Shown: positions 1-13,574 of the stretch, piece by piece | Layout of the letters: each line of letters opens with the position of its first letter | Numbering within the stretch: position 1 is the stretch's first letter | Virus record (IMG/VR): IMGVR_UViG_2684622582_000008 | Span: 1 to 13,574 of that record | Source of the DNA: a virus | Taxonomy: Duplodnaviria; Heunggongvirae; Uroviricota; Caudoviricetes | Direction: 5' to 3' (one strand) | DNA: 13,574 nucleotides | Position numbers and translations under genes: made by a program | The notes under the pieces: generated by a model | What the model saw: the letters and a program-made list of their open reading frames with translations, nothing else | The model's database searches: none | Told to the model about the DNA's origin: nothing

Positions 1-1038
1 CTACTTTTTCGACTCTTTATTCCACTGTAGCAAACCAGCGATATCCTTCTCGCCTTCGGCTTCTTTTAAGCGCCGTTGTTGTTCGGCAAACTGAACATAC
101 TCCGCCTGCGCTTTTTCATCGGCCATTTTCTTGCTGATTTTACCAGCGCCCTGTAGAACCTCTCGGTCGTTAAATTGCAGGAACTGATCCAGCTTATCCT
201 GCCAGTCGCGCAAAAAGACTTGCTGACGACGACGGGCCTGATCCTCGGCAAAGTCCAGCCACATATTAACCACGCGATTAAGTTCGCTGACCTCATCCTG
301 GGTGAGATAATTTTTTGCCACCGTCACGTCGCCCTTACGTACCTCTTCACCTTTATAACTGGTCAAGCCCATGTGCGGCTGGCTGGCATCTGCTCGTTTG
401 TGGATGAGTTCCGCAGCGGTATGCCCGGTACAGGCAAAATGCAGTTTATTCTGGATGGTTTGAAAAAATTGCGTGGTTTCTTTAAGCGATGGCTGATAGT
501 CGGCAGCTAAAGCAAAGATCTCCCGCACCCGCAAATATACCCGACGCTCGCTGGCGCGAATATCGCGGATGCGTTCAAGCATCTCATCAAAATAGTCGGG
601 CACAACCGATGAACCGACAGGCGGATTCTTCAGCCGCTCATCGTCCATCACAAAACCTTTGATCAGGTATTCCTGAAGCGTCTGGGTGGCCCACTGGCGG
701 AATTGCGTGCCTCGAGGCGAGCGAACGCGATAGCCGACAGCGAGAATGGCTTCGAGGTTGTAATGGTCTATCTCTCTGGAAACCTGACGTTTTCCTTCCT
801 GGCGAACTATCCGGAATTTCCGGATGGTTGAGTTTTGAACAAGTTCACCTTCGGAAAATATATTGATTAAATGTTCGTTAATAGTGCGAACATCTTTATC
901 GTACAGTTCAGCCATTGCCGCCTGGGATAACCAGATTGTGTCTGACTCAAAGCGACATTCAACACGCACTCTTCCGTCACCGCTGGCAAACATAATAAAC
1001 TCGCCTGCTGGGGGCTGGGTTAAGTCTTTGTCTGACAT
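1..1038 (-). CDS. rhuM: RhuM-family (virulence protein RhuM-like) protein, 345 aa; lies outside the satellite, next to the displaced selC 3' end
   Basis: Minus-strand ORF with TAG stop at 1-3. Preferred start is ATG at 1038 (MSDKDLTQ...), preceded by GGAGG 4 nt upstream. The longer ORF-track start at 1122 would run through the att repeat. Family call is from recalled similarity to RhuM proteins of selC-linked islands such as Salmonella SPI-3. Confidence 0.6.
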   Translation of the reverse strand: MSDKDLTQPPAGEFIMFASGDGRVRVECRFESDTIWLSQAAMAELYDKDVRTINEHLINIFSEGELVQNSTIRKFRIVRQEGKRQVSREIDHYNLEAILAVGYRVRSPRGTQFRQWATQTLQEYLIKGFVMDDERLKNPPVGSSVVPDYFDEMLERIRDIRASERRVYLRVREIFALAADYQPSLKETTQFFQTIQNKLHFACTGHTAAELIHKRADASQPHMGLTSYKGEEVRKGDVTVAKNYLTQDEVSELNRVVNMWLDFAEDQARRRQQVFLRDWQDKLDQFLQFNDREVLQGAGKISKKMADEKAQAEYVQFAEQQRRLKEAEGEKDIAGLLQWNKESKK

Positions 1039-1088
1039 GTCGCCTCCGAAGGAGTGTTGTTGACGTCGGGAGAGTTCAGGAGAGGCAT

Positions 1089-1111
1089 TTTGGCGGAAGA
1101 TCACAGGAGTC
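1089..1111. repeat. attR: displaced copy of the selC 3' end (direct repeat of 11803-11825)
   Basis: tggcggaagatcacaggagtc at 1091-1111 is identical to 11805-11825; the match extends 2 nt upstream (tt). Imperfect similarity continues into the element (caaaattgcc vs cgaacctgcc). Confidence 0.85.
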
Positions 1112-1233
1112 AAAATTGCCATATAACCACTTGATTCAAATCGTTTATATTTTTCTATTCTAATTCATTTATACACATCCTTATACATATAATATCTATC
1201 GATTAATTGTTACACGTATCTTCACGCACGTTA

Positions 1234-1540
1234 ACTCAGGAAAAAAATTTTTTTTCGGAAGAACTGTTCACACTGTTCACCTTTCTGTTTTCTCCTTTTA
1301 TTTCAGTTTGATAGGTGGTGAATAATGGGTGAAGGGTGAACATTCGATTCTTCACCTCCGGCATTCTGCCGGTGTGACTCATACCGGTGATTAATCCTCC
1401 GCACTGAAATCACTCAGGAAGAAAAAAGTTTTTTTGATTTGATTGTTCACACTGTTCACCTTTCGTTTTTCTCTTTTAATTTCAGTGTGATAACGGGTGA
1501 ATATACGGTGAAGGGTGAACAGTGGATTGTTCACCTTCGG
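1234..1540. repeat. crr-like cis replication region: two ~128-bp direct repeats (1234-1361 and 1412-1540), each with several TGTTCACC/GGTGAACA type-I-like iterons
   Basis: The two segments align almost base for base (actcaggaa...ttcacactgttcacctttc...ggtgaagggtgaaca...ttcacc). Octamers such as tgttcaca (1265-1272), tgttcacc (1274-1281) and ggtgaaca (1335-1342) are present. Position directly downstream of alpha matches P4 crr. Confidence 0.75.
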
Positions 1541-1554
1541 GGGATTCAGGGATG

Positions 1555-1578
1555 AAAAAAGACCGGCAGATGCCGGTC
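1555..1578 (-). terminator. Rho-independent terminator downstream of alpha
   Basis: Stem gaccggc/gccggtc (1561-1567 and 1572-1578) with a 4-nt loop. On the minus strand it is followed by a run of six T (complement of aaaaaa at 1555-1560), 17 nt past the alpha stop. Confidence 0.55.
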
Positions 1579-1594
1579 AGATGAGTCATGAGGG

Positions 1595-3928
1595 TCAGGT
1601 TGTTGCAGGGTCGTCACATTTTGGCAGCCAGTCGCCGTAGCTTTCCTCTTTCAGCGTCAGGTTGGTCTGTATCCCCTGTTTGGTATGGCGCTTCTCGTAA
1701 TTCAGCCCGTATTCCTTCAGCATCACCGGCAGCCCCAGCCCGAACATTTTCAGACTGAGTACATTCCGGTAGCCGTTTGCCTCCATGTAGGCCAGATAGG
1801 CGTGATAGAGGTATTTACGGTAATTACGCGGGATGATACTGGCGTTCCCCATATACATGCCGCTGGTCTGCGGCAGGGTTTCCAGATAGCCGATAAAATC
1901 AAACGTCGGGTCGGCATCCCGTTTGATGTTCAGTGCCTCGTCTGAGTTCTGCTGGGACTGAAGCAGTGACCGGGCGAGCATCGGGTCGCTGAATTTCTGC
2001 ATCAGGTGACGCACGATGACCGCCAGCTCGCGGGTGATTTTGTCCTTAAGCTGCGGGTCGCGCTCCTGCGGGGCTATCTGTTCCGGGAAGTGAATAATCA
2101 CCCGCCGGCGTGACACGCCGCCGCTGCGGTCGGTGAAGCGCATCGGGTTATTGTTCACGGCCAGAATCACCGCCGGGATATGCGTGGAGTACGCATCCCG
2201 GTATTTCGGGTCCACGGACACCGCATCGCCGCCGGTGATGGCCTTGAGTCCGGCACCGTCGCCGCTCCATTTTTCCTGGTCCGGCAGGCGTATCAGTGAG
2301 AAGCCAGTTAACGCGGCACGTTCACGCGGGGATTCCAGCGTCTCAATGGTGGCCGATGTGGCGTTATCCTCCCCGGCCAGCAGGGTGGCGATTTCGGCCA
2401 TGATACTTTTGCCGCTGCCGCCGGGACCGGTCACCTCCAGAAAGAGCTGCCAGTCGTAGCGGTTTGCCAGCACCATAAACAGTGCGGCCAGAATCACGTC
2501 GCGTTTTTCCGCACGGCCACCGGCGGCACGGTCAAGCCAGCGCCAGAACGCGGGGGCGTGGTTTTCCAGCGTTTCCCCTTCCACCGGCGGGGTGAAATCC
2601 ACATCGCACAGGGTGCGCATCCAGTGTGACGGACTGTGCAGGTGGAACGTGCCGTTCTGCGTGTCGAGCACGCCGTTACGAAAGCCAATCAGGCGGCGGG
2701 AGGGGGCTTCCTGCTGCGGAATAATCAGCTTCAGGGTGTCCACCACGGAGGCCACCTTCCCGGAGGAGAACGGCGCGCGCAGACGCTGAAACAGCCCGGC
2801 CACATCCCGGGCAAAGTCCTGTGGCGGCAGCATCTTCCAGACACCATTTTCATAGCGGGACAGAAGCTGGCCGTTGGCATCGACCGCGAGCGCCTCGCCG
2901 TAATGCTCATAGATACGCATGGCCTTTTCGCTGGTACTCATGGCGGAAAACTCCGCTTCGCTCATGGTGTCGAACGGGCTTTCAGCCGGTGGCCGGATGG
3001 CATCGTAAATGGCCTTACGGGTGGCCTCCCCGCCGTACTGCGTGAAGGCATCATTCCAGTCACCGAAGACCGGCGGCAGGGCAACAACGCCCTCACACGC
3101 ATCTGCGGCTGCGGCGGCTTTTTTCTGGCCGTCACCGCTGAGGTCACGGTCAGCAGCAAGGACAATCTGACAGGCCGGATGCTTCTGCCGGGCAAGGCTG
3201 GCCAGAGAAAGGAGGTTCACGGAAGAAAGCGCCACCATCACCGTTTCACCGGTCAGGTGATGTACGGTAAGTGCGGTCGCGTATCCCTCCGCTATCCACA
3301 GACGTTTTCCGGCCTGATTCTGTCCTTCAAGGATGTGACAGGTGCCCCTGACCTGTCCGCCTTTCAGGGTGCGCTTACGGCCGTCAGCACTGATTAACTG
3401 AAGGTTAACCAGTTCGCCGCTGTCGTCATACAGTGGCACCACAAGGTCACCGGCACGCCAGCTCACGCCACCGGCTCTGTGTGTGCCGGTCAGCATCCGG
3501 CATTCCCGGCCGGGAAAGCCCTTGCGGGTCAGGTAGGCGTTACCGGTTCCGGGACGGGTTTTCGCCATCAGGGTTTGTGCCAGTGCGGCGGCGTTCTTCC
3601 GGGCAGCGTCTGTTTCAGCAACGGCGGCGGCCGTCACTGCCGGGTCAGCCGGGGGCAGGCTGCCGGTCACGGCAGCCACCTTTGTGGCCGCGTCGGACGG
3701 GGAGACACCAAACACCTTTTCAACCAGTTTCAGGCCGTCACCGGCACCACACTGATTGCAGTACCAGGTGCCGCGCCCCTCCCTGTCATCAAAACGGAAG
3801 CGGTCACTCCCGCCACAGACCGGACAGGGCTGATGACGGTTTTTCAGCACCTGAATCCCCAGCGCCGGGAGGATACGCGGCCAGTGGCCGAGCGCATGGC
3901 TGACGGTGGCGGTTACGTTCATTTTCAT
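1595..3928 (-). CDS. alpha: P4 alpha-type primase-helicase (zinc-binding primase N-terminus, central/C-terminal P-loop helicase), 777 aa
   Basis: ATG at 3928 with GGAG upstream. N-terminal CPVCGG...WYCNQCG zinc-binding motif; Walker A GPGGSGKS; length equals P4 alpha (777 aa); flanked by crr iterons. Confidence 0.85.
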   Translation of the reverse strand: MKMNVTATVSHALGHWPRILPALGIQVLKNRHQPCPVCGGSDRFRFDDREGRGTWYCNQCGAGDGLKLVEKVFGVSPSDAATKVAAVTGSLPPADPAVTAAAVAETDAARKNAAALAQTLMAKTRPGTGNAYLTRKGFPGRECRMLTGTHRAGGVSWRAGDLVVPLYDDSGELVNLQLISADGRKRTLKGGQVRGTCHILEGQNQAGKRLWIAEGYATALTVHHLTGETVMVALSSVNLLSLASLARQKHPACQIVLAADRDLSGDGQKKAAAAADACEGVVALPPVFGDWNDAFTQYGGEATRKAIYDAIRPPAESPFDTMSEAEFSAMSTSEKAMRIYEHYGEALAVDANGQLLSRYENGVWKMLPPQDFARDVAGLFQRLRAPFSSGKVASVVDTLKLIIPQQEAPSRRLIGFRNGVLDTQNGTFHLHSPSHWMRTLCDVDFTPPVEGETLENHAPAFWRWLDRAAGGRAEKRDVILAALFMVLANRYDWQLFLEVTGPGGSGKSIMAEIATLLAGEDNATSATIETLESPRERAALTGFSLIRLPDQEKWSGDGAGLKAITGGDAVSVDPKYRDAYSTHIPAVILAVNNNPMRFTDRSGGVSRRRVIIHFPEQIAPQERDPQLKDKITRELAVIVRHLMQKFSDPMLARSLLQSQQNSDEALNIKRDADPTFDFIGYLETLPQTSGMYMGNASIIPRNYRKYLYHAYLAYMEANGYRNVLSLKMFGLGLPVMLKEYGLNYEKRHTKQGIQTNLTLKEESYGDWLPKCDDPATT

Positions 3929-3942
3929 GGTGTTGTTCTCCT

Positions 3943-4263
3943 TCAGTGCAGTACCGGCGCTTTTATGTGACGGGCACAGAGTTCATCCATCACAACCAGC
4001 CCGAGAAAGGACAGCGACGGCGCGGCCTTCAGGGGGCCGGATTCCATTAAATCTTCCAGCAGGGCACAGGCTATCTGACGCCCTTTTTCCTCACCGTGCT
4101 GGCGCAGATAAAAGCCTTCCAGCTCAGCGGCGATGGCCGCCTCCAGTGATTCAAGGGTGAGATGCGGGTAGCGGTGCTGACGTTCGCACACGGTCAGCCA
4201 GGCACAGGCGACAGCGCGACGGTAAAGGGCTGCGCGTAAGACGGGCGGTAAGGGGGTTTTCAT
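3943..4263 (-). CDS. cnr: P4 orf106-like small protein (possibly Cnr copy-number regulator), 106 aa
   Basis: ATG at 4263 preceded by GGGAGG. Ends 14 nt upstream of the alpha start, so it is in the operon. Size and position match P4 orf106; the cnr name is from memory and tentative. Confidence 0.5.
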
Positions 4264-4398
4264 TTGTTTTCCTCCCTGTGACAGATGACTGCATTCCGTG
4301 CCGGTTGCATTAACTGATAAGGCATATCTGCGTCTCCTGAAGACGTGCGTATCCCTGCGCGAATACGCACATTTAATTTTTCGGGTGTCGTTTTTTAA

Positions 4399-4854
4399 TT
4401 ACAGATAATTGCGGTAACTGTTATCCGGGGTGATTTCCGGGTCAGGCTCCGTGCGGGAAATTTCCCGCCATTCCCGCGCCACCGGTGCCGCCCGGCTGGC
4501 CGGAACAGTGTCCTGCGGGTAAATATCCAGATATTTCTCCCGCCATTTCTGTAATTCCGGGTCTCCGGCCATTTCTTTCAGTACCGCATGCCGGTTTACG
4601 GGGCTGCGTTTGAACAGGTCAGGACGGTCACAGGTAAATTCCCGCAGAAAACGCCCCAGCGGGATGTCTGTGGTGCGCCCGTCAGTGAGGATACGCACAA
4701 GGATACTGAATTTTCGGCGGTACGGGTTCCAGACAATTTCCGGACAGCGGTACGGCATTTCCCACGGAATACCGTCTTCCAGAATGCCGACCACGGCCAC
4801 ATCGGGAAAACCGGCAGAACGGTAAATCTCACCGGGCTGGGGAAAATCAAACAT
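4399..4854 (-). CDS. P4 orf151-like hypothetical protein, 151 aa
   Basis: ATG at 4854; start overlaps the stop of the upstream epsilon-like ORF by 8 nt (coupling). Size and position match P4 orf151. Confidence 0.6.
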   Translation of the reverse strand: MFDFPQPGEIYRSAGFPDVAVVGILEDGIPWEMPYRCPEIVWNPYRRKFSILVRILTDGRTTDIPLGRFLREFTCDRPDLFKRSPVNRHAVLKEMAGDPELQKWREKYLDIYPQDTVPASRAAPVAREWREISRTEPDPEITPDNSYRNYL

Positions 4855-5134
4855 GTGTCCTGTCTCCCCGGTCTTTCTGCTGGGCGAGAAAATCGCGGCA
4901 CAGGCCTTTGGCTTTCAGCTCATTCAGCACAAAATCAATATCTTCATTCAGGTAGCTGAAAATATGCGGAATGTAGAGCTGATGCAGGCCGGAGAGTTCA
5001 CGGTGAATCAAATCACCCCCAACAAACCGGGATACTGCGCTGGCGCGGTTGAGCTTATGGTAAGCCTCAATGCTGAGGTGTTCACGGGCGTCATGACGCG
5101 CTGAGACGGTCTGAGGGGCTTTTTTATTACGCAC
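4847..5134 (-). CDS. epsilon: Epsilon-like protein (P2-type helper derepressor), 95 aa if GTG start at 5134
   Basis: In-frame GTG at 5134 preceded by GGAGG (revcomp of cctcc at 5141-5145). Overlaps the stop of the upstream 65-aa ORF (GTGCGTAA). Alternative in-frame ATG starts at 5179 or 5215 cannot be excluded. Function inferred from position and size only. Confidence 0.5.
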
Positions 5135-5324
5135 GGGACACCTCCACCACCGGCAGACGGGCAGCAAGGGAGAGCACATAGTCACGGACAAGGGAACGGC
5201 GGGCGCTGCGTTCATCACCGGCGACGGTGCGAAGCATGCAGATACGGGGATGACGGTCTGCGCGACGGACAGCCGCAAACACAAAGACAAATTCAGGGTG
5301 TGAAGGGGTAAGGGTTGTAGCCAT
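5127..5324 (-). CDS. Small hypothetical protein (65 aa), first well-supported ORF after the leader
   Basis: ATG at 5324 with AAGGAGA 7 nt upstream; TAA stop at 5127. It is the C-terminal part of a longer open frame (5127-5762) that I do not accept as one gene. Confidence 0.45.
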
Positions 5325-5355
5325 AAGGCAGTCTCCTTCGAGTAGCAAATAACTG

Positions 5356-5619
5356 CTATCGCCGGAGTTCCTACGCTCGATGGCGATAGCCCAGACGGGG
5401 GTAGGAATACCGGCCTCGAAGAATACCGGCCAGCCCGGAGGCTGCCCCGCCTGAGCTACCATTGACTCAGTGGCATAACATGCGATTGCGAACAGGATCA
5501 TACCTGCACGGCAAACCACACGCCACACCATAATCTGGCGCTCTGTGGCGTTGATTGCGACACAAAAAAAGACGCATGGCGCGTCATATGTCGCCTTCGA
5601 GTTACACGGGTTCCTACGC
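5356..5619 (-). ncRNA. Candidate P4-type immunity leader (cI-like RNA with seqA/seqB/seqC-like elements)
   Basis: No RBS-supported ORF between the vis stop and 5324. gttcctacgc occurs twice (5367-5376 and 5610-5619); ggggtaggaat at 5397-5407 is near-complementary (8/10) to it. Hairpin ctatcgcc/ggcgatag (5356-5363 and 5382-5389). Order on the leftward transcript (copy, complement, copy) matches the P4 seqA-cI(seqB)-seqC layout. Confidence 0.35.
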
Positions 5620-5648
5620 CCGGCTGCCGATTTTGCGGCAGCGGAAAA

Positions 5649-5678
5649 ACTATATCCGCAAATGCCGGAAAAAGGCAA
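5649..5678 (-). promoter_or_regulatory. Candidate constitutive leftward promoter (PLE-like)
   Basis: On the minus strand: TTGCCT (-35; plus 5673-5678) and TATAGT (-10; plus 5649-5654) with 18-bp spacing, just downstream of vis. Confidence 0.3.
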
Positions 5679-5713
5679 GCCAGAAAAAGGGAGTTTTTGC
5701 AGAGCGGGCATCA

Positions 5714-5980
5714 TCATGCGTCGTACCCCCGTTTGCGTCCGGCAATGCGCCCGGCCATCCATGCGGTGATTTCAGAGTGCAGCCAGGCCACATTTTTACC
5801 GCCAAGACTCACCTGCGGCGGAAATTCCCCCTTACGGATGAGTTCGTAGATGGTCGAGCGTGACAGGCCGCACAGGTGCATCACTTCCGGCAGACGTAAA
5901 AAACGCTCCTGCGTGATGTCCGGCAGCGGCATCAGTGGCGTCACAGGGGCGGGAGACGGGGAAGAAAAAACAGCTTGCAT
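5714..5980 (-). CDS. vis: AlpA/Vis-family helix-turn-helix regulator/excisionase (P4 orf88 vis-like), 88 aa
   Basis: ATG at 5980 with GAGGT upstream. Segment [29 protein letters not shown]...[10 protein letters not shown] is typical of AlpA-family proteins. Length equals P4 orf88 (vis). Confidence 0.75.
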
Positions 5981-6081
5981 CGGGCTACCTCGTTAATGTC
6001 CATACAGCACCGGATAAGTCCGTCCGGCTTCGGGTAGCGCTTTATTTTGTGAATATTTTCAGCAGACGCAACAGGGGGATT

Positions 6082-6099
6082 TGTTCAGGCTGCCTTACA
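6082..6099 (-). promoter_or_regulatory. Delta/Ogr-type activator site (TGT-N12-ACA) of a leftward late promoter (PLL-like) upstream of vis
   Basis: tgt tcaggctgcctt aca at 6082-6099, centred about 110 bp upstream of the vis start. Confidence 0.5.
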
Positions 6100-6257
6100 A
6101 TGACTGTGTGTTTTTTATCCATCTGGACTGGAAGGGTCTCAAAGGGTTCTGAAGGACCTGGAATTTTTTATAGTGAAATACAAATTGTTTTTTCTTATTT
6201 ATTTCAGTGAATTAATAAAAATAAACAGTAGTAAACAGCACAAAAAGTCCATGAGCG

Positions 6258-6361
6258 GGTGAACAGTGGTGAACAGACGGTGAACAGTCATTACTGCGAT
6301 TGTTCACCCTTTAACTTACTGTATTACTTATCTTTTTTATTAAGGTGAACAGAGGTGAACA
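6258..6361. repeat. ori-like cluster of six type-I-like iterons (GGTGAACA/TGTTCACC)
   Basis: ggtgaaca at 6258-6265, 6268-6275, 6279-6286, 6344-6351 and 6354-6361; inverted tgttcacc at 6301-6308. Same octamer as in the crr-like repeats about 4.8 kb away. Confidence 0.7.
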
Positions 6362-6440
6362 GTAAAATATAAAAAAACAAACAGTAAGCCGGTTTTTCCT
6401 GCGACCTTTTCCTGGCTTGCCGGTGTGAGGATGAGTCTCC

Positions 6441-6458
6441 TGTGTCAGGGCTGGCACA
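6441..6458 (+). promoter_or_regulatory. Delta/Ogr-type activator site (TGT-N12-ACA) of Psid late promoter
   Basis: tgt gtcagggctggc aca at 6441-6458, centred about 80 bp upstream of the sid ATG (6531). Confidence 0.55.
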
Positions 6459-6530
6459 TCTGCAATGCGTCGTGTTGTTGTCCGGTGTACGTCACAATTT
6501 TCTTAACCTGAAGTGACGAGGAGCCGGAAA

Positions 6531-7265
6531 ATGTCTGACAACACCATCCCTGAATATCTGCAACCCGCGCTGGCACAACTGGAAAAGGCCAGAGCCGCCC
6601 ATCTTGAGAACGCCCGCCTGATGGATGAGACCGTCACGGCCATTGAACGGGCAGAGCAGGAAAAAAATGCGCTGGCGCAGGCCGACGGAAACGACGCTGA
6701 CGACTGGCGCACGGCCTTTCGTGCAGCCGGTGGTGTCCTGAGCGACGAGCTGAAACAGCGCCACATTGAGCGCGTGGCACGCCGGGAGCTGGTACAGGAA
6801 TATGACAATCTGGCCGTGGTGCTGAATTTCGAACGTGAACGCCTGAAAGGGGGGTGTGACAGCACGGCCACCGCCTACCGGAAGGCACATCATCACCTTC
6901 TGAGTCTGTATGCAGAGCATGAGCTGGAACACGCCCTGAATGAAACCTGTGAGGCGCTTGTCCGGGCAATGCATCTGAGCATTCTGGTACAGGAAAATCC
7001 GCTCGCCAACACCACCGGCCATCAGGGCTACGTCGCACCGGAAAAGGCTGTCATGCAGCAGGTGAAATCATCGCTGGAACAGAAAATTAAACAGATGCAA
7101 ATCAGCCTCACCGGCGAGCCGGTTCTCCGGCTGACCGGACTGTCAGCGGCAACACTCCCGCACATGGATTATGAGGTGGCAGGCACACCGGCACAGCGCA
7201 AGGTGTGGCAGGACAAAATAGACCAGCAGGGAGCAGAGCTTAAGGCCAGAGGACTGCTGTCATGA
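6531..7265 (+). CDS. sid: Sid-like capsid size-determination (external scaffold) protein, 244 aa
   Basis: ATG at 6531 with GAGGAG 8 nt upstream (the ORF-track GTG at 6513 has no RBS). Length equals P4 Sid; first gene of the sid-delta-psu operon. Confidence 0.8.
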   Translation: MSDNTIPEYLQPALAQLEKARAAHLENARLMDETVTAIERAEQEKNALAQADGNDADDWRTAFRAAGGVLSDELKQRHIERVARRELVQEYDNLAVVLNFERERLKGGCDSTATAYRKAHHHLLSLYAEHELEHALNETCEALVRAMHLSILVQENPLANTTGHQGYVAPEKAVMQQVKSSLEQKIKQMQISLTGEPVLRLTGLSAATLPHMDYEVAGTPAQRKVWQDKIDQQGAELKARGLLS

Positions 7266-7762
7266 TTTACTGCCCGTCGTGTGGACATGTTGCTCACACC
7301 CGTCGCGCACATTTCATGGACGATGGCACCAAGATAATGATTGCACAGTGCCGGAATATTTATTGCTCTGCGACATTTGAAGCGAGTGAAAGCTTTTTCT
7401 CTGACAGTAAAGATTCAGGAATGGAATACATTTCAGGCAAACAGAGATACCGCGATTCACTGACGTCAGCCTCCGGCAGTATGAAACGCCCGAAAAGAAT
7501 GCTTGTTACCGGATATTGTTGTCGGAGATGTAAAGGCCTTGCACTGTCAAGAACATCGCGGCGTCTGTCTCAGGAAGTCACCGAGCGTTTTTATGTGTGC
7601 ACGGATCCGGGCTGTGGTCTGGTGTTTAAAACGCTTCAGACCATCAACCGTTTCATTGTCCGCCCGGTCACGCCGGACGAACTGGCAGAAAGCCTGCATG
7701 AAAAACAGGAACTGCCGCCAGTACGCTTAAAAACACAATCATATTCGCTGCGTCTGGAATGA
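7262..7762 (+). CDS. delta: Delta-like late transcriptional activator (tandem Ogr-type zinc-finger domains), 166 aa
   Basis: ATG overlaps the sid stop (ATGA). CPSCGH...C..C and a second C..CC..C...C..C cysteine cluster are consistent with duplicated Ogr-like zinc fingers. Length equals P4 Delta. Confidence 0.8.
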   Translation: MIYCPSCGHVAHTRRAHFMDDGTKIMIAQCRNIYCSATFEASESFFSDSKDSGMEYISGKQRYRDSLTSASGSMKRPKRMLVTGYCCRRCKGLALSRTSRRLSQEVTERFYVCTDPGCGLVFKTLQTINRFIVRPVTPDELAESLHEKQELPPVRLKTQSYSLRLE

Positions 7763-7835
7763 GGGCTGCCGGTTAACACCGGCCGTCGCCGCACACCGTA
7801 TTTTTATTCTTCAGCATGATGAGAAAGAGATAACG

Positions 7836-8408
7836 ATGGAAAGCACAGCCTTACAGCAGGCCTTTGACACCTGTCAGAATAACAAAGCAGCATGGCTGCA
7901 ACGCAAAAATGAGCTGGCAGCGGCCGAACAGGAATATCTGCGGCTTCTGTCAGGAGAAGGCAGAAACGTCAGTCGCCTGGACGAATTACGCAATATTATC
8001 GAAGTCAGAAAATGGCAGGTGAATCAGGCCGCTGGTCGTTATATTCGTTCGCATGAAGCCGTTCAGCACATCAGCATCCGCGACCGGCTGAATGATTTTA
8101 TGCAGCAGCACGGCACAGCACTGGCGGCGGCACTGGCACCGGAGCTGATGGGCTACAGTGAGCTGACGGCCATTGCCCGAAACTGTGCCATACAGCGTGC
8201 CACAGATGCCCTGCGTGAAGCCCTCCTGTCCTGGCTTGCGAAGGGGGAAAAAATTAATTATTCCGCACAGGATAGCGACATTTTAACGACCATCGGATTC
8301 AGGCCTGACGCGGCTTCGGTGGATGACAGCCGTGAAAAATTCACCCCTGCGCAGAACATGATTTTTTCGCGTAAAAGTGCGCAACTGGCATCACGTCAGT
8401 CTGTGTAA
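7836..8408 (+). CDS. psu: Psu-like polarity suppression protein (Rho antagonist / capsid decoration), 190 aa
   Basis: Third gene of the late operon; length equals P4 Psu; N-terminus MESTALQQAFDTCQNN matches my recollection of P4 Psu. Confidence 0.8.
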   Translation: MESTALQQAFDTCQNNKAAWLQRKNELAAAEQEYLRLLSGEGRNVSRLDELRNIIEVRKWQVNQAAGRYIRSHEAVQHISIRDRLNDFMQQHGTALAAALAPELMGYSELTAIARNCAIQRATDALREALLSWLAKGEKINYSAQDSDILTTIGFRPDAASVDDSREKFTPAQNMIFSRKSAQLASRQSV

Positions 8409-8444
8409 AATTCCCCGAAAATCCGCCTGTTTTTACTGAAAAAA

Positions 8445-8483
8445 GCCATGCATCGATAAGGTGCATGGCTTTGCATGCGTTTT
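8445..8483 (+). terminator. Candidate terminator after psu
   Basis: Stem gccatgca/tgcatggc (8445-8452 and 8462-8469) followed by a T-rich tract tttgcatgcgtttt. Confidence 0.4.
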
Positions 8484-8572
8484 CCTGCCTCATTTTCTGC
8501 AGACCGCGCCATTCCCGGCGCGGCCTGAGCGTGTCAGTGAAACTGCATTAAAACCGCCCCGCAAAGCGGGCG

Positions 8573-8591
8573 GGCGAGGCGGGGAAAGCAC
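8573..8591. other. cos-like cohesive-end site (P2/P4-type 19-mer)
   Basis: ggcgaggcggggaaagcac matches the P2/P4 cohesive-end sequence as I recall it; it lies between psu and the cargo gene, as in P4. Confidence 0.65.
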
Positions 8592-8620
8592 TGCGCGCAT
8601 GTATGCAGGAAATAACCTGA

Positions 8621-8666
8621 CTCTCCAGCCAGAGAAAGAAACTGAACTGGAGAGTTTTTTGTTTTT
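8621..8666. terminator. Stem-loop with flanking T/A tracts between cos and the cargo gene
   Basis: ctctccag (8621-8628) pairs with ctggagag (8647-8654), followed by ttttttgttttt (8655-8666). It sits about 25 nt past the stop of the minus-strand cargo gene. Confidence 0.35.
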
Positions 8667-8678
8667 ACATGGATGTGT

Positions 8679-10439
8679 TCAGTTTTTATTTATGAATGAA
8701 ATACTGTTCTCTAGTGACTCCTTTACTTTTTTCACGGTGTTTTTTAACTCAATAATGGCTCCGCGACGAAAAGAAATTGAAAGTTCATTCAGGTAAGAAT
8801 TTAAGAACTCATCTAGTTTTTTTAGATGAGGTAGCTCGTTAGATAGATAATCGCGAAGGTTAGAAAAGTTGTATACAGATAATAGATGGTCTGAAAACAT
8901 TTGAATATCGTAAATGGACCAATTATGTTGTATGGCACTTATGATTAAATTTACATCTAAAGTTTCCAGTGCTTTAAACTTGAAATCTGAATGATATATA
9001 TCCATATCGATAGTGGTCCAACCATCGTTAACCATCTTGTTTTTTAATTCTTCTATTCTTTCTCTTTTTGTTATGTTAATATATTTGTCAACAAAAAAGT
9101 TATATAAATTATCTCCATCATGTTTTAGCATATTTAGTGGGATGTCATTGATGTTTGGCACGGTTTTATGAAAATATGATTTTATTTCATCGTCACTGAA
9201 GCTAAGTTTGCTTTGATTAATGGTGTCTTCATCTAGGGTGTTTATATGAGGTATATATTCATATTTTGAGAGTCTAATATAGTTATTCGTGGCAATTAAC
9301 CATGTAGATAGATCTGGAGAATTTGATTTTAAAATTGTTTTTATTATTTCTTCCTGATAGTCATGTTCAGATATGTTATATAACTCAGGTCTTAATAATC
9401 CAGCATAATCATTTCTCTTGGGAGGGGTATTGTCAGTAAAAACATATGGAAGAATGTCTTTATGCGAAATTGCATTAAAACAATATGGAGCCATTTTATT
9501 ATTATAGTTTTTGTATGCACTAATACTTAATAAATTGTTTTCTTCTTCACTTATTTCATTGTGTTCGTTTTCTGGTGTGGTTGAAATTGTTTTGAGTGAT
9601 GATGAAACAAAATTTTCACGAAACTCATTTTCCTTATAGTTGAATTTTTCCTTAAGTATTATATGTGCACACAATGAGCTTACTAAATTTTTAATATCTA
9701 TATCAGAGATATCTCTGTCTTGCGTTGTTTGTTCAAACAACGGTAGGAGTTTTACAATGACTCTATTAATGATTCGGATATTTGTTTCTTCGAAATCTAT
9801 AATTACTTGCTTAATGATGTCTCTATAATTTTCTTGTATTTTCTCAAGCTTTTTATCTAAAATGTCAGAAAGATTGTTTATAGAAAAGTATACCTCGTCG
9901 CTAATAACTTTTTCTTTATGATTCAATACCTCATTGCTTTGTTTTGAAAAATTACCAACTAAAATATAGTCTAACATCTTGTTATTTTGATAATTTTGTA
10001 AGCAAAAGGTTGCTATTTCATCTCGCAAATTTTGAGGTATACGTTCTAGATCATCAATAATAAAAACTCCTGAAAGATCTTTTAATACATAATGTTGCAT
10101 TGCCCCTGCAAATGTTGATATTATTTTTCCAGTAAACTTCCCAGTGCTTTCTTCTTTAGTAATAGCTGTGGTTACATTTGATGCTAACTCTGTAATTATT
10201 TCTATATCGGGTGGATTCTCTAAATAAGTTACACTCAACACCTTGTCTTTAAAATCTTGCAAACTATTTAATCCAAGCACAGATATATAAAATTGAGTTT
10301 TGTTGGAATAATATTGCTTAAATTCATTTTGAAGGAAGAATGTTTTACCAACCCCCCACTCACCGTTTAACAAAATTAGACCTTCACGTTTTTCATTTAG
10401 TAATCTAATTAAAACAGATATTATTGTGTTTTTATCCAT
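8679..10439 (-). CDS. KAP-family-like P-loop NTPase with large uncharacterised C-terminal region, 586 aa; candidate anti-phage defence cargo in the P4 hotspot
   Basis: ATG at 10439 with AAGGAG upstream. Walker A GEWGVGKT (GxWGxGKT type) and Walker B VFIIDDLER (hhhhDDL[DE]R type) in the first ~135 aa. Very AT-rich compared with the P4 backbone. Occupies the gop/beta/cII position between cos and int. Confidence 0.7.
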   Translation of the reverse strand: MDKNTIISVLIRLLNEKREGLILLNGEWGVGKTFFLQNEFKQYYSNKTQFYISVLGLNSLQDFKDKVLSVTYLENPPDIEIITELASNVTTAITKEESTGKFTGKIISTFAGAMQHYVLKDLSGVFIIDDLERIPQNLRDEIATFCLQNYQNNKMLDYILVGNFSKQSNEVLNHKEKVISDEVYFSINNLSDILDKKLEKIQENYRDIIKQVIIDFEETNIRIINRVIVKLLPLFEQTTQDRDISDIDIKNLVSSLCAHIILKEKFNYKENEFRENFVSSSLKTISTTPENEHNEISEEENNLLSISAYKNYNNKMAPYCFNAISHKDILPYVFTDNTPPKRNDYAGLLRPELYNISEHDYQEEIIKTILKSNSPDLSTWLIATNNYIRLSKYEYIPHINTLDEDTINQSKLSFSDDEIKSYFHKTVPNINDIPLNMLKHDGDNLYNFFVDKYINITKRERIEELKNKMVNDGWTTIDMDIYHSDFKFKALETLDVNLIISAIQHNWSIYDIQMFSDHLLSVYNFSNLRDYLSNELPHLKKLDEFLNSYLNELSISFRRGAIIELKNTVKKVKESLENSISFINKN

Positions 10440-10469
10440 AAAATACTCCTTTTAGTAATTATAATTAAC

Positions 10470-11642
10470 TCAATCTGCTGGATAAATAAAGTCACTATAC
10501 CATTGTAACATCTTTAATCTTTTCTCTAAATATTGAGCATGATTATATGTTCCCCTAATGCTATTTTTATCAACATGAGCTAGTTGCATTTCAATCCATG
10601 CACTATCAAAACCTTGTTCATGTAGTATTGTCGACATTGTATGTCTAAACCCGTGGCCTGTTGCACGTCCCTTATAACCAAGTAATTCGATCACTTGTGA
10701 TATACTTTCTTTAGAAATTGGTTTAGTACGATTATTACGTCCAATAAATATATAAGGATAATGGCTAGAGATGGGTTTTAATTGATTAAATAGGGTAATC
10801 ACTTGAGATGATAAAGGTACAAGGTGAGGCCGACGCATTTTCATGCGTTCTGCTGGTATTTCCCATATTCCTTTTTCTAAATTGACTTCTTCCCATGTGG
10901 CAAAACGCAGCTCTTGTGTTCTTACTCCGGTAAGCATCACAATCTTGGTTGCATTTTTAGTGATTATGCTGCCAGTGTAAGCCTCCAGATCTTTGACAAA
11001 ATAAGGGAGTTCTTCTGCTGATAGAAAAGGATGATGTTTTTGCTTCGGTACAGCTAATGCGATAGCTAAATCAGGTGCTGGATTGTATTCAGCACGGCCA
11101 GTGATGATCGCGTAGCGAAACACCTCTCCGCATCGTTGACGTACTTTTCTGGTTTTCTCCAACGCTCCACGTTTTTCTATGCGTTTAAGTACTTCAAGCA
11201 GTTCTAGGGGTTTAATTTCAGCTATTGGCCGTTTACCAATGAAAGGAAAAACATCCTGTTCAAATGTTTTAATAATTTCTTCGCGATAAGCTAGAGTCCA
11301 ACGATCTGCTTTTGCTGCGTGCCATTCTCTGCTAACTGCCTCAAAAGAGGTTTCAATTGATAATTTCTGAGCAATTTTCTGAGCCTTACGTTCTTCTACT
11401 GGATCAATGCCGTTTGCAACCTGTTTACGTGCCGTATCGCGTTTCTCACGTGCTTCTGCGAGGCTTACTAAATCATAGCTGCCAAATGACATTAACCGCG
11501 CTTTCCCAGCAAATCTGAAACGGAAACGCCAGCCTTTCGAGCCATCTGGATTGATAAGCAACGACAGACCTTGTCCATCGTTCAATGTGTATGGCTTGTC
11601 TTGTGGTTTTGCACGTTTGATCTGTATATCGGTTAGAGCCAT
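10470..11642 (-). CDS. int: Tyrosine site-specific integrase (P4/CP4-57-like family), 390 aa
   Basis: N-terminus MALTDIQIKRAKPQDKPYTL...WRFRFRF is typical of P4-family integrases. C-terminal catalytic region GHGFRHT...LAHVDKNSIRGTYNH. Lies adjacent to tRNA-Sec. AT-rich. Weak RBS. Confidence 0.85.
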   Translation of the reverse strand: MALTDIQIKRAKPQDKPYTLNDGQGLSLLINPDGSKGWRFRFRFAGKARLMSFGSYDLVSLAEAREKRDTARKQVANGIDPVEERKAQKIAQKLSIETSFEAVSREWHAAKADRWTLAYREEIIKTFEQDVFPFIGKRPIAEIKPLELLEVLKRIEKRGALEKTRKVRQRCGEVFRYAIITGRAEYNPAPDLAIALAVPKQKHHPFLSAEELPYFVKDLEAYTGSIITKNATKIVMLTGVRTQELRFATWEEVNLEKGIWEIPAERMKMRRPHLVPLSSQVITLFNQLKPISSHYPYIFIGRNNRTKPISKESISQVIELLGYKGRATGHGFRHTMSTILHEQGFDSAWIEMQLAHVDKNSIRGTYNHAQYLEKRLKMLQWYSDFIYPAD

Positions 11643-11804
11643 GTGTATAACTGAAAACTACGTATAAAAAATCTATACACATTACTATACATATTTTTCG
11701 CGGATTCAGGGAGATGAACTCGGACTATTACGGATAAGATGATTATTCATCGTATTGAATACAAAGGGTTTTATGGAGCGTCTCGGAACTGGCTGGATGA
11801 AGTT

Positions 11805-11899
11805 TGGCGGAAGATCACAGGAGTCGAACCTGCCCGGGACCGCTGGCGGCCCCAACTGGATTTGAAGTCCAGCCGCCTCACCGGAGACGACGATCTTCC
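11805..11899 (-). tRNA. selC: tRNA-Sec (selenocysteine tRNA), intact; its 3' end forms attL
   Basis: The reverse complement of 11805-11899 reads GGAAGATCGTCGTCTCCGGTGAGGCGGCTGGACTTCAAATCCAGTTGGGGCCGCCAGCGGTCCCGGGCAGGTTCGACTCCTGTGATCTTCCGCCA, matching E. coli selC as recalled, including the long variable arm and CCA end. Confidence 0.9.
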
Positions 11900-12191: not shown

Positions 12192-13574
12192 ATGAAGAGT
12201 GAAGTGTTGTCCGTTAAAGAGAAAATTGGTTATGGCATGGGAGACGCCGCCAGCCACATTATTTTCGATAACGTAATGTTATATATGATGTTCTTTTATA
12301 CCGATATTTTTGGCATTCCTGCCGGATTTGTCGGAACCATGTTTTTGGTCGCTCGTGCACTGGATGCGATTTCCGATCCTTGCATGGGGTTGTTGGCCGA
12401 TCGAACGCGCTCTCGCTGGGGTAAATTTCGGCCGTGGGTGCTGTTTGGCGCACTGCCATTCGGGATCGTCTGTGTACTGGCCTATAGCACGCCAGATCTC
12501 AGTATGAACGGAAAAATGATTTATGCAGCAATTACTTACACCCTACTTACCTTACTTTATACCATCGTCAATATCCCTTACTGCGCATTGGGTGGTGTAA
12601 TCACCAATGACCCGACTCAGCGTATCTCGCTGCAATCCTGGCGTTTTGTGCTGGCGACCGCGGGAGGCATGCTCTCTACTGTTCTGATGATGCCACTGGT
12701 TAATTTAATTGGTGGTGATAATAAACCACTCGGTTTCCAGGGCGGTATCGCGGTCCTTTCCGTGGTGGCATTTATGATGCTGGCATTCTGTTTCTTCACC
12801 ACTAAAGAACGCGTTGAAGCACCACCTACAACGACGTCTATGCGGGATGATTTACGTGATATCTGGCAAAACGACCAGTGGCGTATTGTCGGTTTCCTGA
12901 CAATTTTCAATATCCTGGCGGTGTGCGTACGCGGTGGGGCGATGATGTATTACGTCACATGGATTTTGGGTACGCCGGAAGTGTTTGTCGCTTTTCTCAC
13001 CACTTATTGCGTGGGTAACCTGATTGGCTCCGCACTGGCAAAACCGCTGACCGACTGGAAATGTAAAGTCACTATCTTCTGGTGGACGAACGCCCTGCTG
13101 GCAGTGATTAGCCTCGCGATGTTCTTTGTTCCTATGCAGGCCAGCATCACCATGTTTGTCTTCATCTTCGTGATTGGTGTGTTGCATCAACTGGTGACAC
13201 CTATCCAGTGGGTAATGATGTCCGATACCGTCGACTACGGCGAGTGGTGTAATGGTAAACGCCTGACCGGGATCAGTTTTGCTGGCACGCTGTTTGTGCT
13301 CAAACTGGGGTTGGCCTTCGGTGGTGCCCTTATCGGCTGGATGCTGGCTTATGGCGGATATGATGCGGCAGAAAAAGCGCAGAACAGCGTCACAATTAGC
13401 ATCATTATCGCGCTATTCACGATTGTTCCGGCGATCTGTTACTTGCTGAGCGCGATTATCGCTAAACGCTACTACTCGCTCACGACGCACAATCTGAAAA
13501 CCGTTATGGAACAGCTGGCGCAGGGCAAACGCCGTTGCCAGCAACAATTCACCTCTCAAGAAGTGCAGAACTAA
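12192..13574 (+). CDS. yicJ: GPH-family (glycoside-pentoside-hexuronide:cation symporter) inner-membrane transporter, 460 aa
   Basis: ATG at 12192 with AGGAAAAG upstream (the ORF-track start at 12135 has no RBS). GYGMGD...D..R.RWGKFRPW GPH signature; many hydrophobic segments. Identity as yicJ is inferred from the selC-adjacent position in E. coli K-12. Confidence 0.7.
   Translation: MKSEVLSVKEKIGYGMGDAASHIIFDNVMLYMMFFYTDIFGIPAGFVGTMFLVARALDAISDPCMGLLADRTRSRWGKFRPWVLFGALPFGIVCVLAYSTPDLSMNGKMIYAAITYTLLTLLYTIVNIPYCALGGVITNDPTQRISLQSWRFVLATAGGMLSTVLMMPLVNLIGGDNKPLGFQGGIAVLSVVAFMMLAFCFFTTKERVEAPPTTTSMRDDLRDIWQNDQWRIVGFLTIFNILAVCVRGGAMMYYVTWILGTPEVFVAFLTTYCVGNLIGSALAKPLTDWKCKVTIFWWTNALLAVISLAMFFVPMQASITMFVFIFVIGVLHQLVTPIQWVMMSDTVDYGEWCNGKRLTGISFAGTLFVLKLGLAFGGALIGWMLAYGGYDAAEKAQNSVTISIIIALFTIVPAICYLLSAIIAKRYYSLTTHNLKTVMEQLAQGKRRCQQQFTSQEVQN

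Follow-up and report, generated by a model that had tools for sequence, protein, structure and literature searches.

A rhuM gene displaced from selC by a P4-like satellite in Escherichia coli is probably the right-end relic of an older CP4-57-like island

Why does a complete rhuM gene stand beside a displaced 3' end of selC, at the border of a phage satellite? The window analysed here, the whole stretch of 13,574 nucleotides, runs from the rhuM stop codon (position 1) to the yicJ stop codon (position 13574). A sequence-only reading had placed a complete rhuM-like gene about 50 bp from the attR copy of the selC 3' end, within positions 1-1111. It had further proposed that rhuM was the immediate neighbour of selC before the satellite inserted, as at the selC-proximal end of SPI-3-like islands, that the locus is a composite or tandem island, and that more island content may lie beyond the left edge of the window.

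The rhuM reading frame is intact, and its 345 residues equal the length of the RefSeq proteins. The start codon is the one that RefSeq assigns to this gene in related genomes and is preceded, five nucleotides upstream, by GGAGG (1046-1042). Between the ATG and the repeat there are 50 nt, or 52 nt when counted to where the tRNA 3' end would be; gene, spacer and att copy together end at position 1111, so both the proposed distance and the proposed coordinates are accurate. A longer reading frame of 373 aa (1..1122, minus strand) was rejected; its 28 extra codons are read-through over the att copy, an artefact. The family assignment also withstood homology search. The product scored 393.5 bits (E 4.5e-118) with Pfam PF13310 (Virulence_RhuM), whose cut-off is 33.7, and the match spans positions 1-250 of the 252 in the profile. 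It also matched the PADLOC candidate defence family PDC-S05 over positions 1-339 of 346 (E 2.8e-173), and its N-terminal ~190 residues match PADLOC PDC-S23 as well. NCBIfam and PHROGs searches with RhuM gave no match. The family is large, with 29,152 representatives at 50% identity (E up to 0.001); the full-length cluster at 99% identity holds 713 member sequences, and a homologue named for Salmonella is 94% identical to the E. coli copy. The gene is under strong purifying selection, with a dN/dS of 0.04-0.10 against orthologues from six genera.

Table 1. Features of the window (positions of the whole stretch; a blank cell means that no strand is given).
Feature	Position	Strand	Description
rhuM, complete CDS	1038..1	minus	345 aa; ATG at 1038, stop TAG 3..1; RhuM family
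Spacer, rhuM to att copy	1039..1088	minus	50 nt, includes Shine-Dalgarno GGAGG
attR core ("displaced selC 3' end")	1089..1111		exact 23-bp direct repeat, selC 3' end plus 2 nt
P4-like phage satellite in selC	1112..11802		Pfam, RefSeq annotation of relative L001, absence from empty-site strains
Two 119-nt direct repeats	1243..1540 (1243-1361, 1422-1540)		80% identical, TGTTCACC-type motifs; attR-to-primase interval
Satellite alpha primase-helicase	1595..3928	minus	777 aa; Pfam
P4-type tyrosine integrase	10470..11642	minus	390 aa, adjoins selC; Arm-DNA-bind_3, Phage_int_M, Phage_integrase
attL core	11803..11825		inside regenerated selC
selC, tRNA-Sec, anticodon TCA	11805..11899	minus	intact; ARAGORN; sole tRNA found
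yicJ, core transporter	12192..13574	plus	other side of selC; MFS_2; coordinates transferred from L001

As shown in Table 1, a P4-like satellite separates rhuM from the intact selC. The 23-mer TTTGGCGGAAGATCACAGGAGTC occurs exactly twice in the window, at the attR and attL cores, against 0 expected (200 shuffles, 3 mismatches allowed). Between these cores the order is crr-like repeats, alpha primase-helicase, Ash, a sid-like gene, Delta, Psu, a cargo NTPase and the integrase, and a terminator-like hairpin (1578-1561, minus strand) follows the primase gene. The 119-nt repeats occupy the position expected of the P4 crr replication region, which we presume them to be. With its terminal tRNA repeats, adjoining integrase and an empty site in relatives, the satellite belongs to the tRNA-targeting integrative elements; with P4-like satellites it shares the P4-type integrase, the alpha primase-helicase, Psu, Delta and Ash, as well as att repeats derived from the tRNA 3' end and, between psu and int, a slot whose cargo varies. 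This likeness belongs to the element next door, however, and not to rhuM, which the satellite only displaced from selC.

The cargo slot of the satellite (8679-10439, minus strand) encodes a 586-aa P-loop NTPase (AAA_22 / KAP) that matches the PADLOC candidate PDC-S49 weakly (E 2.2e-12). In the relative S1-ESP-02-A, the same slot holds a DEAD/DEAH helicase and a small ORF. Since its genes differ between these strains we call the cargo variable, and it is probably defence-related.

The state of the locus before the satellite arrived was read from other E. coli strains. In a megablast comparison of window 1-1300 with 5426 complete E. coli genomes, 845 (~16%) keep the full rhuM region at a threshold of at least 80% coverage; some of these have the satellite junction, and in others rhuM runs straight into tRNA-Sec. 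At least 80% of the whole window is carried by 75 genomes. Strain TUM2826, which lacks the satellite, matches window 1-1120 at 99.6%, has an identical rhuM coding sequence, and shows the order yicL, hypothetical ORF, rhuM, 52 nt, selC, yicJ. The 50-nt spacer of the window is likewise the one that stands after intact selC in satellite-free strains. Because TUM2826 and other satellite-free strains have rhuM 52 nt from an intact selC, rhuM was the immediate neighbour of selC before the satellite inserted, as had been supposed. About 3600 further genomes, K-12-type strains included, carry only a 162-bp rhuM pseudogene next to selC, with setC adjoining; K-12 setC was considered as part of a rhuM islet and rejected on empty-site and flank comparisons.

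The same comparisons bear on whether rhuM could be cargo of the satellite, placed at or beyond its attR end. The gene physically adjoins the end of the satellite, whose cargo NTPase lies in the same window, and P4-like satellites do carry defence cargo. Yet rhuM is located outside the 23-bp repeats, the identical gene sits beside selC in satellite-free strains, and the same satellite is also found beside the K-12-type remnant, in genomes without a full rhuM. The satellite and rhuM are therefore independent of each other, and the empty-site comparison refutes the cargo reading, to which we assign a vanishingly small probability.

The features to the left of rhuM lie outside the window and were read in relatives whose identity to the compared parts of the window, 1-1120 and 1-1300, is 99.6-99.9%. 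There, the left flank extends for 1.24 kb and then gives way to the core genes yicL, nlpA, yicS and nepI; this 1.24-kb flank is present in 1103 of the 5426 genomes. At 73-139 nt left of window position 1, the relatives L001 and L002 read GAAGAGGCATTT and then TGGC----GATCACAGGAGTC, which contains a second copy of the selC end (att'). This copy is degenerate, with a 4-nt deletion within the 23-bp core, and is seen in L001, L002 and L087; its outer flank resembles the true selC flank. An ungapped 20-nt att probe missed the E. coli att' because of the deletion, and pairwise blastn and a 13-mer probe detected it. Beyond att' lies a frameshifted fragment of a second rhuM (rhuM'), corresponding to RhuM residues ~170-237 at ~50% amino acid and 75-77% nucleotide identity, followed leftward by a 165-aa ORF in DNA of 32.5% GC. 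The ORF had no match in Pfam, PADLOC or PHROGs. In L002, the fragment and the ORF occupy 5616-5747 and 4934-5431, respectively. This older debris amounts to only ~1.1 kb before yicL is reached.

Extending the locus leftward in relatives thus yielded the second att repeat that the sequence-only reading had suggested looking for, in degenerate form, but no further intact island, only rhuM' and the 165-aa ORF. The expectation of an island continuing past the left edge failed in these relatives: the relic ends ~140 nt out, and ~1.1 kb of debris is followed by core yicL. The composite or tandem character of the locus was borne out in miniature, as att', a conserved arm and a decayed second rhuM.

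A small indel polymorphism was observed near the locus. A RelE/ParE toxin and an HTH antitoxin lie between yicN and nepI in TUM2826 and R9 (L002 371-1031, L087 4615-5275), and the pair is absent from S1-ESP-02-A and a K-12-type strain.

These flanks also decide the comparison with SPI-3. The Salmonella SPI-3 RhuM (PF13310 / COG3943; PDC-S05) and the E. coli protein share a full-length family match and linkage to selC; the E. coli copy differs in standing alone, 52 nt from selC, with neither sugR nor any SPI-3 cargo. In Salmonella, rhuM is reported to occupy the end of SPI-3 nearest selC (PMC5966662), which would favour reading the window's rhuM as the selC-proximal end of a large SPI-3-like island running leftward. 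One locus from our collection has a bearing on this reading as well. Locus L085, whose RhuM cluster is named Salmonella enterica, ends its rhuM region in an att copy that is a perfect 21-nt selC end, beyond which lie genes with autotransporter, Trans_reg_C regulator and P-type ATPase domains that fit SPI-3; we take these to be misL, marT and mgtB. In all inspected E. coli relatives, however, the SPI-3 cargo distal to rhuM (misL, marT, mgtCB) is absent from the left flank, and the ~1.24-kb flank, a stretch conserved in 1103 genomes, leads to yicL-nlpA-yicS-nepI. A large SPI-3-like island is thereby refuted for the examined relatives, and as an account of this locus it is hardly credible. Of the proposed SPI-3-like placement, the linkage to selC of the SPI-3 type stands, being found in other genera; the position does not, as rhuM is at the distal (attR) end of the island and not at the proximal one.

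What lies between the rhuM stop codon and att' shows the kind of island concerned. A conserved arm of ~95 nt fills this interval, of the form GCAAAATCATTTGGGGG...GGGGG...TCATTTATC...ATCAAT...TCAAATGC, then GACTCCTGTGATC. It aligns among E. coli, Pseudescherichia vulneris, three Serratia species, Chania, two metagenome scaffolds and L085; R9 and L084 are among the aligned loci. The combination of arm and selC-end copy after rhuM is found in E. coli, the probable Salmonella locus L085, Serratia, Chania, Pseudescherichia and an Erwiniaceae genome; in P. vulneris, a lone rhuM is followed by a near-perfect att'. We surveyed 80 rhuM loci of other species, taken from one-genome-per-species contigs. 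The 13-mer GACTCCTGTGATC occurs 103-116 nt past the rhuM stop in seven of the 80, plus L084-L086, each time in direct orientation, with none on the reverse strand (~0.35 chance hits estimated, with at most 2 mismatches). An nhmmer profile of the arm matched 19 of the 80 loci, in all cases co-oriented with rhuM: eight matches directly follow rhuM, seven, for the most part in Morganellaceae, are 0.5-3.7 kb downstream of it, and four are upstream of it, where another island separates rhuM from selC as the satellite does in the window.

On its other side, rhuM is preceded in several loci by a module of antirestriction, RadC, DUF987, CbeA, CbtA, DUF5983 and DUF4942 genes. In L017, L022 and L084-86, the gap from DUF4942 to rhuM is 73-87 nt, with CbtA, RadC and others before it. 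Given the arm, the selC-end copy and this CP4-57-type upstream module in other loci, we consider it likely that rhuM stands last, next to attR, in a family of islands that target selC and, in the present lineage, is the sole remnant of one member. Like CP4-57 / CP4-44-type islands, of which rhuM is the last gene in other genomes, the E. coli locus has rhuM followed by the ~95-nt right arm and a selC-end copy; it differs in that only the terminal gene and the arm are left and the attR copy is damaged. The integrase and the antirestriction, RadC, CbeA/CbtA and DUF4942 genes are all absent from the selC-to-rhuM interval in the window's locus type, so rhuM here is a relic and not a member island. 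A full CP4-like island does occupy the same selC slot in E. coli R9 (L087 10220-19220), with the same 4-nt-deleted att and the same flank. Its genes include Ag43, DUF932, antirestriction, RadC, CbtA and DUF4942, and rhuM is not among them.

The survey also bears on a reading in which rhuM did not come from an island. Here, rhuM would be an ancestral, core-like chromosomal neighbour of selC that most E. coli have lost, and islands and satellites would merely insert between the two genes. In 28 of the 80 loci a tRNA gene lies within 4 kb of rhuM, and it is always tRNA-Sec, upstream of and co-oriented with rhuM, from Klebsiella to Proteus. The GC content of rhuM, 49.9%, is host-like, and most E. 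coli retain a rhuM pseudogene remnant beside selC. At L034, selC and rhuM are separated by an inserted CP4-like island. In Atlantibacter and others, where rhuM stands 150-250 nt from selC, neither an arm nor an att was detected beyond the gene, a layout equally compatible with an old chromosomal gene. Against this, a conserved right arm and a selC-end copy follow rhuM in several genera, rhuM is contiguous with DUF4942/CbtA island modules, and beyond the att copy there is a further rhuM, now decayed. Furthermore, RhuM proteins 70-80% identical to that of E. coli are found away from selC in Vibrio, Shewanella, Aeromonas and Zhongshania, and some of these non-selC copies are nearer to the E. coli RhuM than the Morganellaceae copies are, which argues for mobility over pure vertical descent. 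We therefore regard an ancestral chromosomal neighbour as unlikely and keep to the origin of rhuM from an island.

Across the survey, the selC-rhuM gaps of the 28 loci range from 149 nt to 3.7 kb with variable gene content, and about 36 of the 80 loci are selC-linked when those with only an att or only an arm are counted. The loci without a selC link are mostly from Vibrio, Shewanella and other non-enteric genera. The adjacency of rhuM and selC is thus not specific to SPI-3 and recurs across Enterobacterales as a right-end module of islands. The literature that pairs rhuM with selC may be confined to Salmonella and Plesiomonas, and the right-end-relic pattern across genera may be undescribed, an incremental addition. 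Near rhuM, some of these loci hold other genes of the conflict type. A TIR-domain protein and a SymE toxin lie between selC and rhuM in a Klebsiella sp. (L004 2481-3876), a PIN_8 protein and an IS110 transposase lie by rhuM, in the selC-rhuM space or just upstream, in Serratia oryzae (L024 315-3076), and the E. albertii gap holds a truncated integrase and DUF4942.

Taken with the left flank, the locus probably consists of three mobile layers stacked at selC, in which rhuM remains from the right end of an older CP4-57-like island. We infer the order of layering from repeats, an empty site, gene orders, conservation and a family match that are themselves observed. The oldest layer, beyond the degenerate attR, would be the still older frameshifted rhuM fragment and the AT-rich ORF, which end at yicL. 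The second layer would comprise rhuM and the ~140 nt downstream of it, partly outside the window, as the relic of the CP4-57-like island; deletion of everything between selC and rhuM would have brought the gene to 52 nt from selC. For the newest layer, the P4-type integrase would have recombined the satellite attP with the selC 3' end, regenerating selC and leaving the 23-bp partial copy next to the rhuM spacer. One further similarity touches on this scheme: ~35 nt after the intact E. coli selC resemble the sequence after attR in L084 and L085. This points either to a long segment of attP/attB identity or to flanks reshuffled by homologous recombination, and homologous recombination between tandem elements could yield the same picture.

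At tRNA hotspots, successive elements accrete in tandem by using one att site, and cis-mobilisable elements (CIMEs) are known from such arrays. The attL-element-att-relic-att' arrangement of the present locus is of the same form, and it is conceivable that the selC end, rhuM, the arm and att' constitute an integrase-less, cis-mobilisable unit that a co-resident selC integrase moves, either by itself or linked to the satellite. Direct att-type repeats bound the unit, which stands in an accretion-type tandem with an integrase-bearing element, and the near-perfect att' of P. vulneris follows a lone rhuM. But the E. coli att' carries the 4-nt deletion in its 23-bp core, and the satellite arm differs from the CP4-like arm. 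Because of the deletion, and in this respect different from CIMEs, mobility of the relic in E. coli appears unlikely from the sequence, and we consider a cis-mobilisable unit very improbable. The stacked arrangement, with its island relic, illustrates three successive layers at a single tRNA hotspot. Each of its components is of an established kind, from the RhuM family and the P4-like satellites to the CP4-type islands and the accretion of elements at tRNA genes, and no concept is changed by it.

The transcription of the relic gene was considered from its upstream sequence. On the minus strand upstream of rhuM, a simple scan for promoters detected no sigma-70-like site, whether the satellite was present (the window) or absent (the empty site). 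A promoter-like block, TCTCTGGCATACTA, precedes rhuM as a conserved element in five other genera (L017, L018, L022, L027, L030) and resembles an extended -10 element; it is missing from the E. coli spacer. Since no promoter was recognised, the E. coli copy may be poorly expressed. In the empty site, rhuM may be transcribed by read-through from selC.

Previous reports offer several clues to what RhuM may do. In E. coli B, T7 and T5 plated ~1000-fold less well, and T4 ~10-fold less well, in the presence of a PDC-S05 protein from a cold seep that has a Virulence_RhuM domain (preprint 10.1101/2024.09.26.614923); this protein is a distant homologue of the E. coli RhuM. A role as a toxin domain was proposed by Anantharaman et al. 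for RhuM, which occurs in R-M/PrrC loci and often in Doc fusions (PMC3710099; also PMC1626090). A Salmonella rhuM mutant is cited, in a passage of PMC7449626, as defective in invasion and in killing of C. elegans. Virulence phenotypes are thus reported only for Salmonella, and defence has been shown only for the distant cold-seep homologue. A general role of RhuM as a stand-alone defence or toxin protein seems somewhat favoured, and the window's rhuM would most likely be a single-gene anti-phage or toxin module. Such a role would explain why rhuM was retained from the island. The intact, conserved candidate defence gene in 845 of the 5426 E. coli genomes, set against the K-12-type remnant, offers a natural contrast of presence and absence.

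More tentatively, and with the odds somewhat against it, selC-specific CP4-like islands across Enterobacterales may have a conserved terminal rhuM that is kept through their decay as an anti-phage or addiction module. If this is true, the selC hotspot stacks two defence carriers, the cargo slot of the satellite and RhuM, and expression of RhuM would depend on read-through from selC or the satellite.

PDB searches with RhuM as a single sequence and with a 41-sequence profile returned nothing significant, the best hit being a winged-helix regulator at E 0.69. The AlphaFold model (119 sequences; mean pLDDT 77, pTM 0.46) predicts an N-terminal strand-plus-helix domain at residues 13-104 and a helical remainder. 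Our best guess is that RhuM has a winged-helix-like, DNA-binding N-terminus and a conserved helical effector. Residues 134-163 (window ~550-640, minus strand) are the lowest-confidence part of the model (pLDDT ~40), and the sequence RIRDIRASERR in this segment holds several residues that are invariant across 119 homologues. The segment may be a candidate for binding a partner or nucleic acid.
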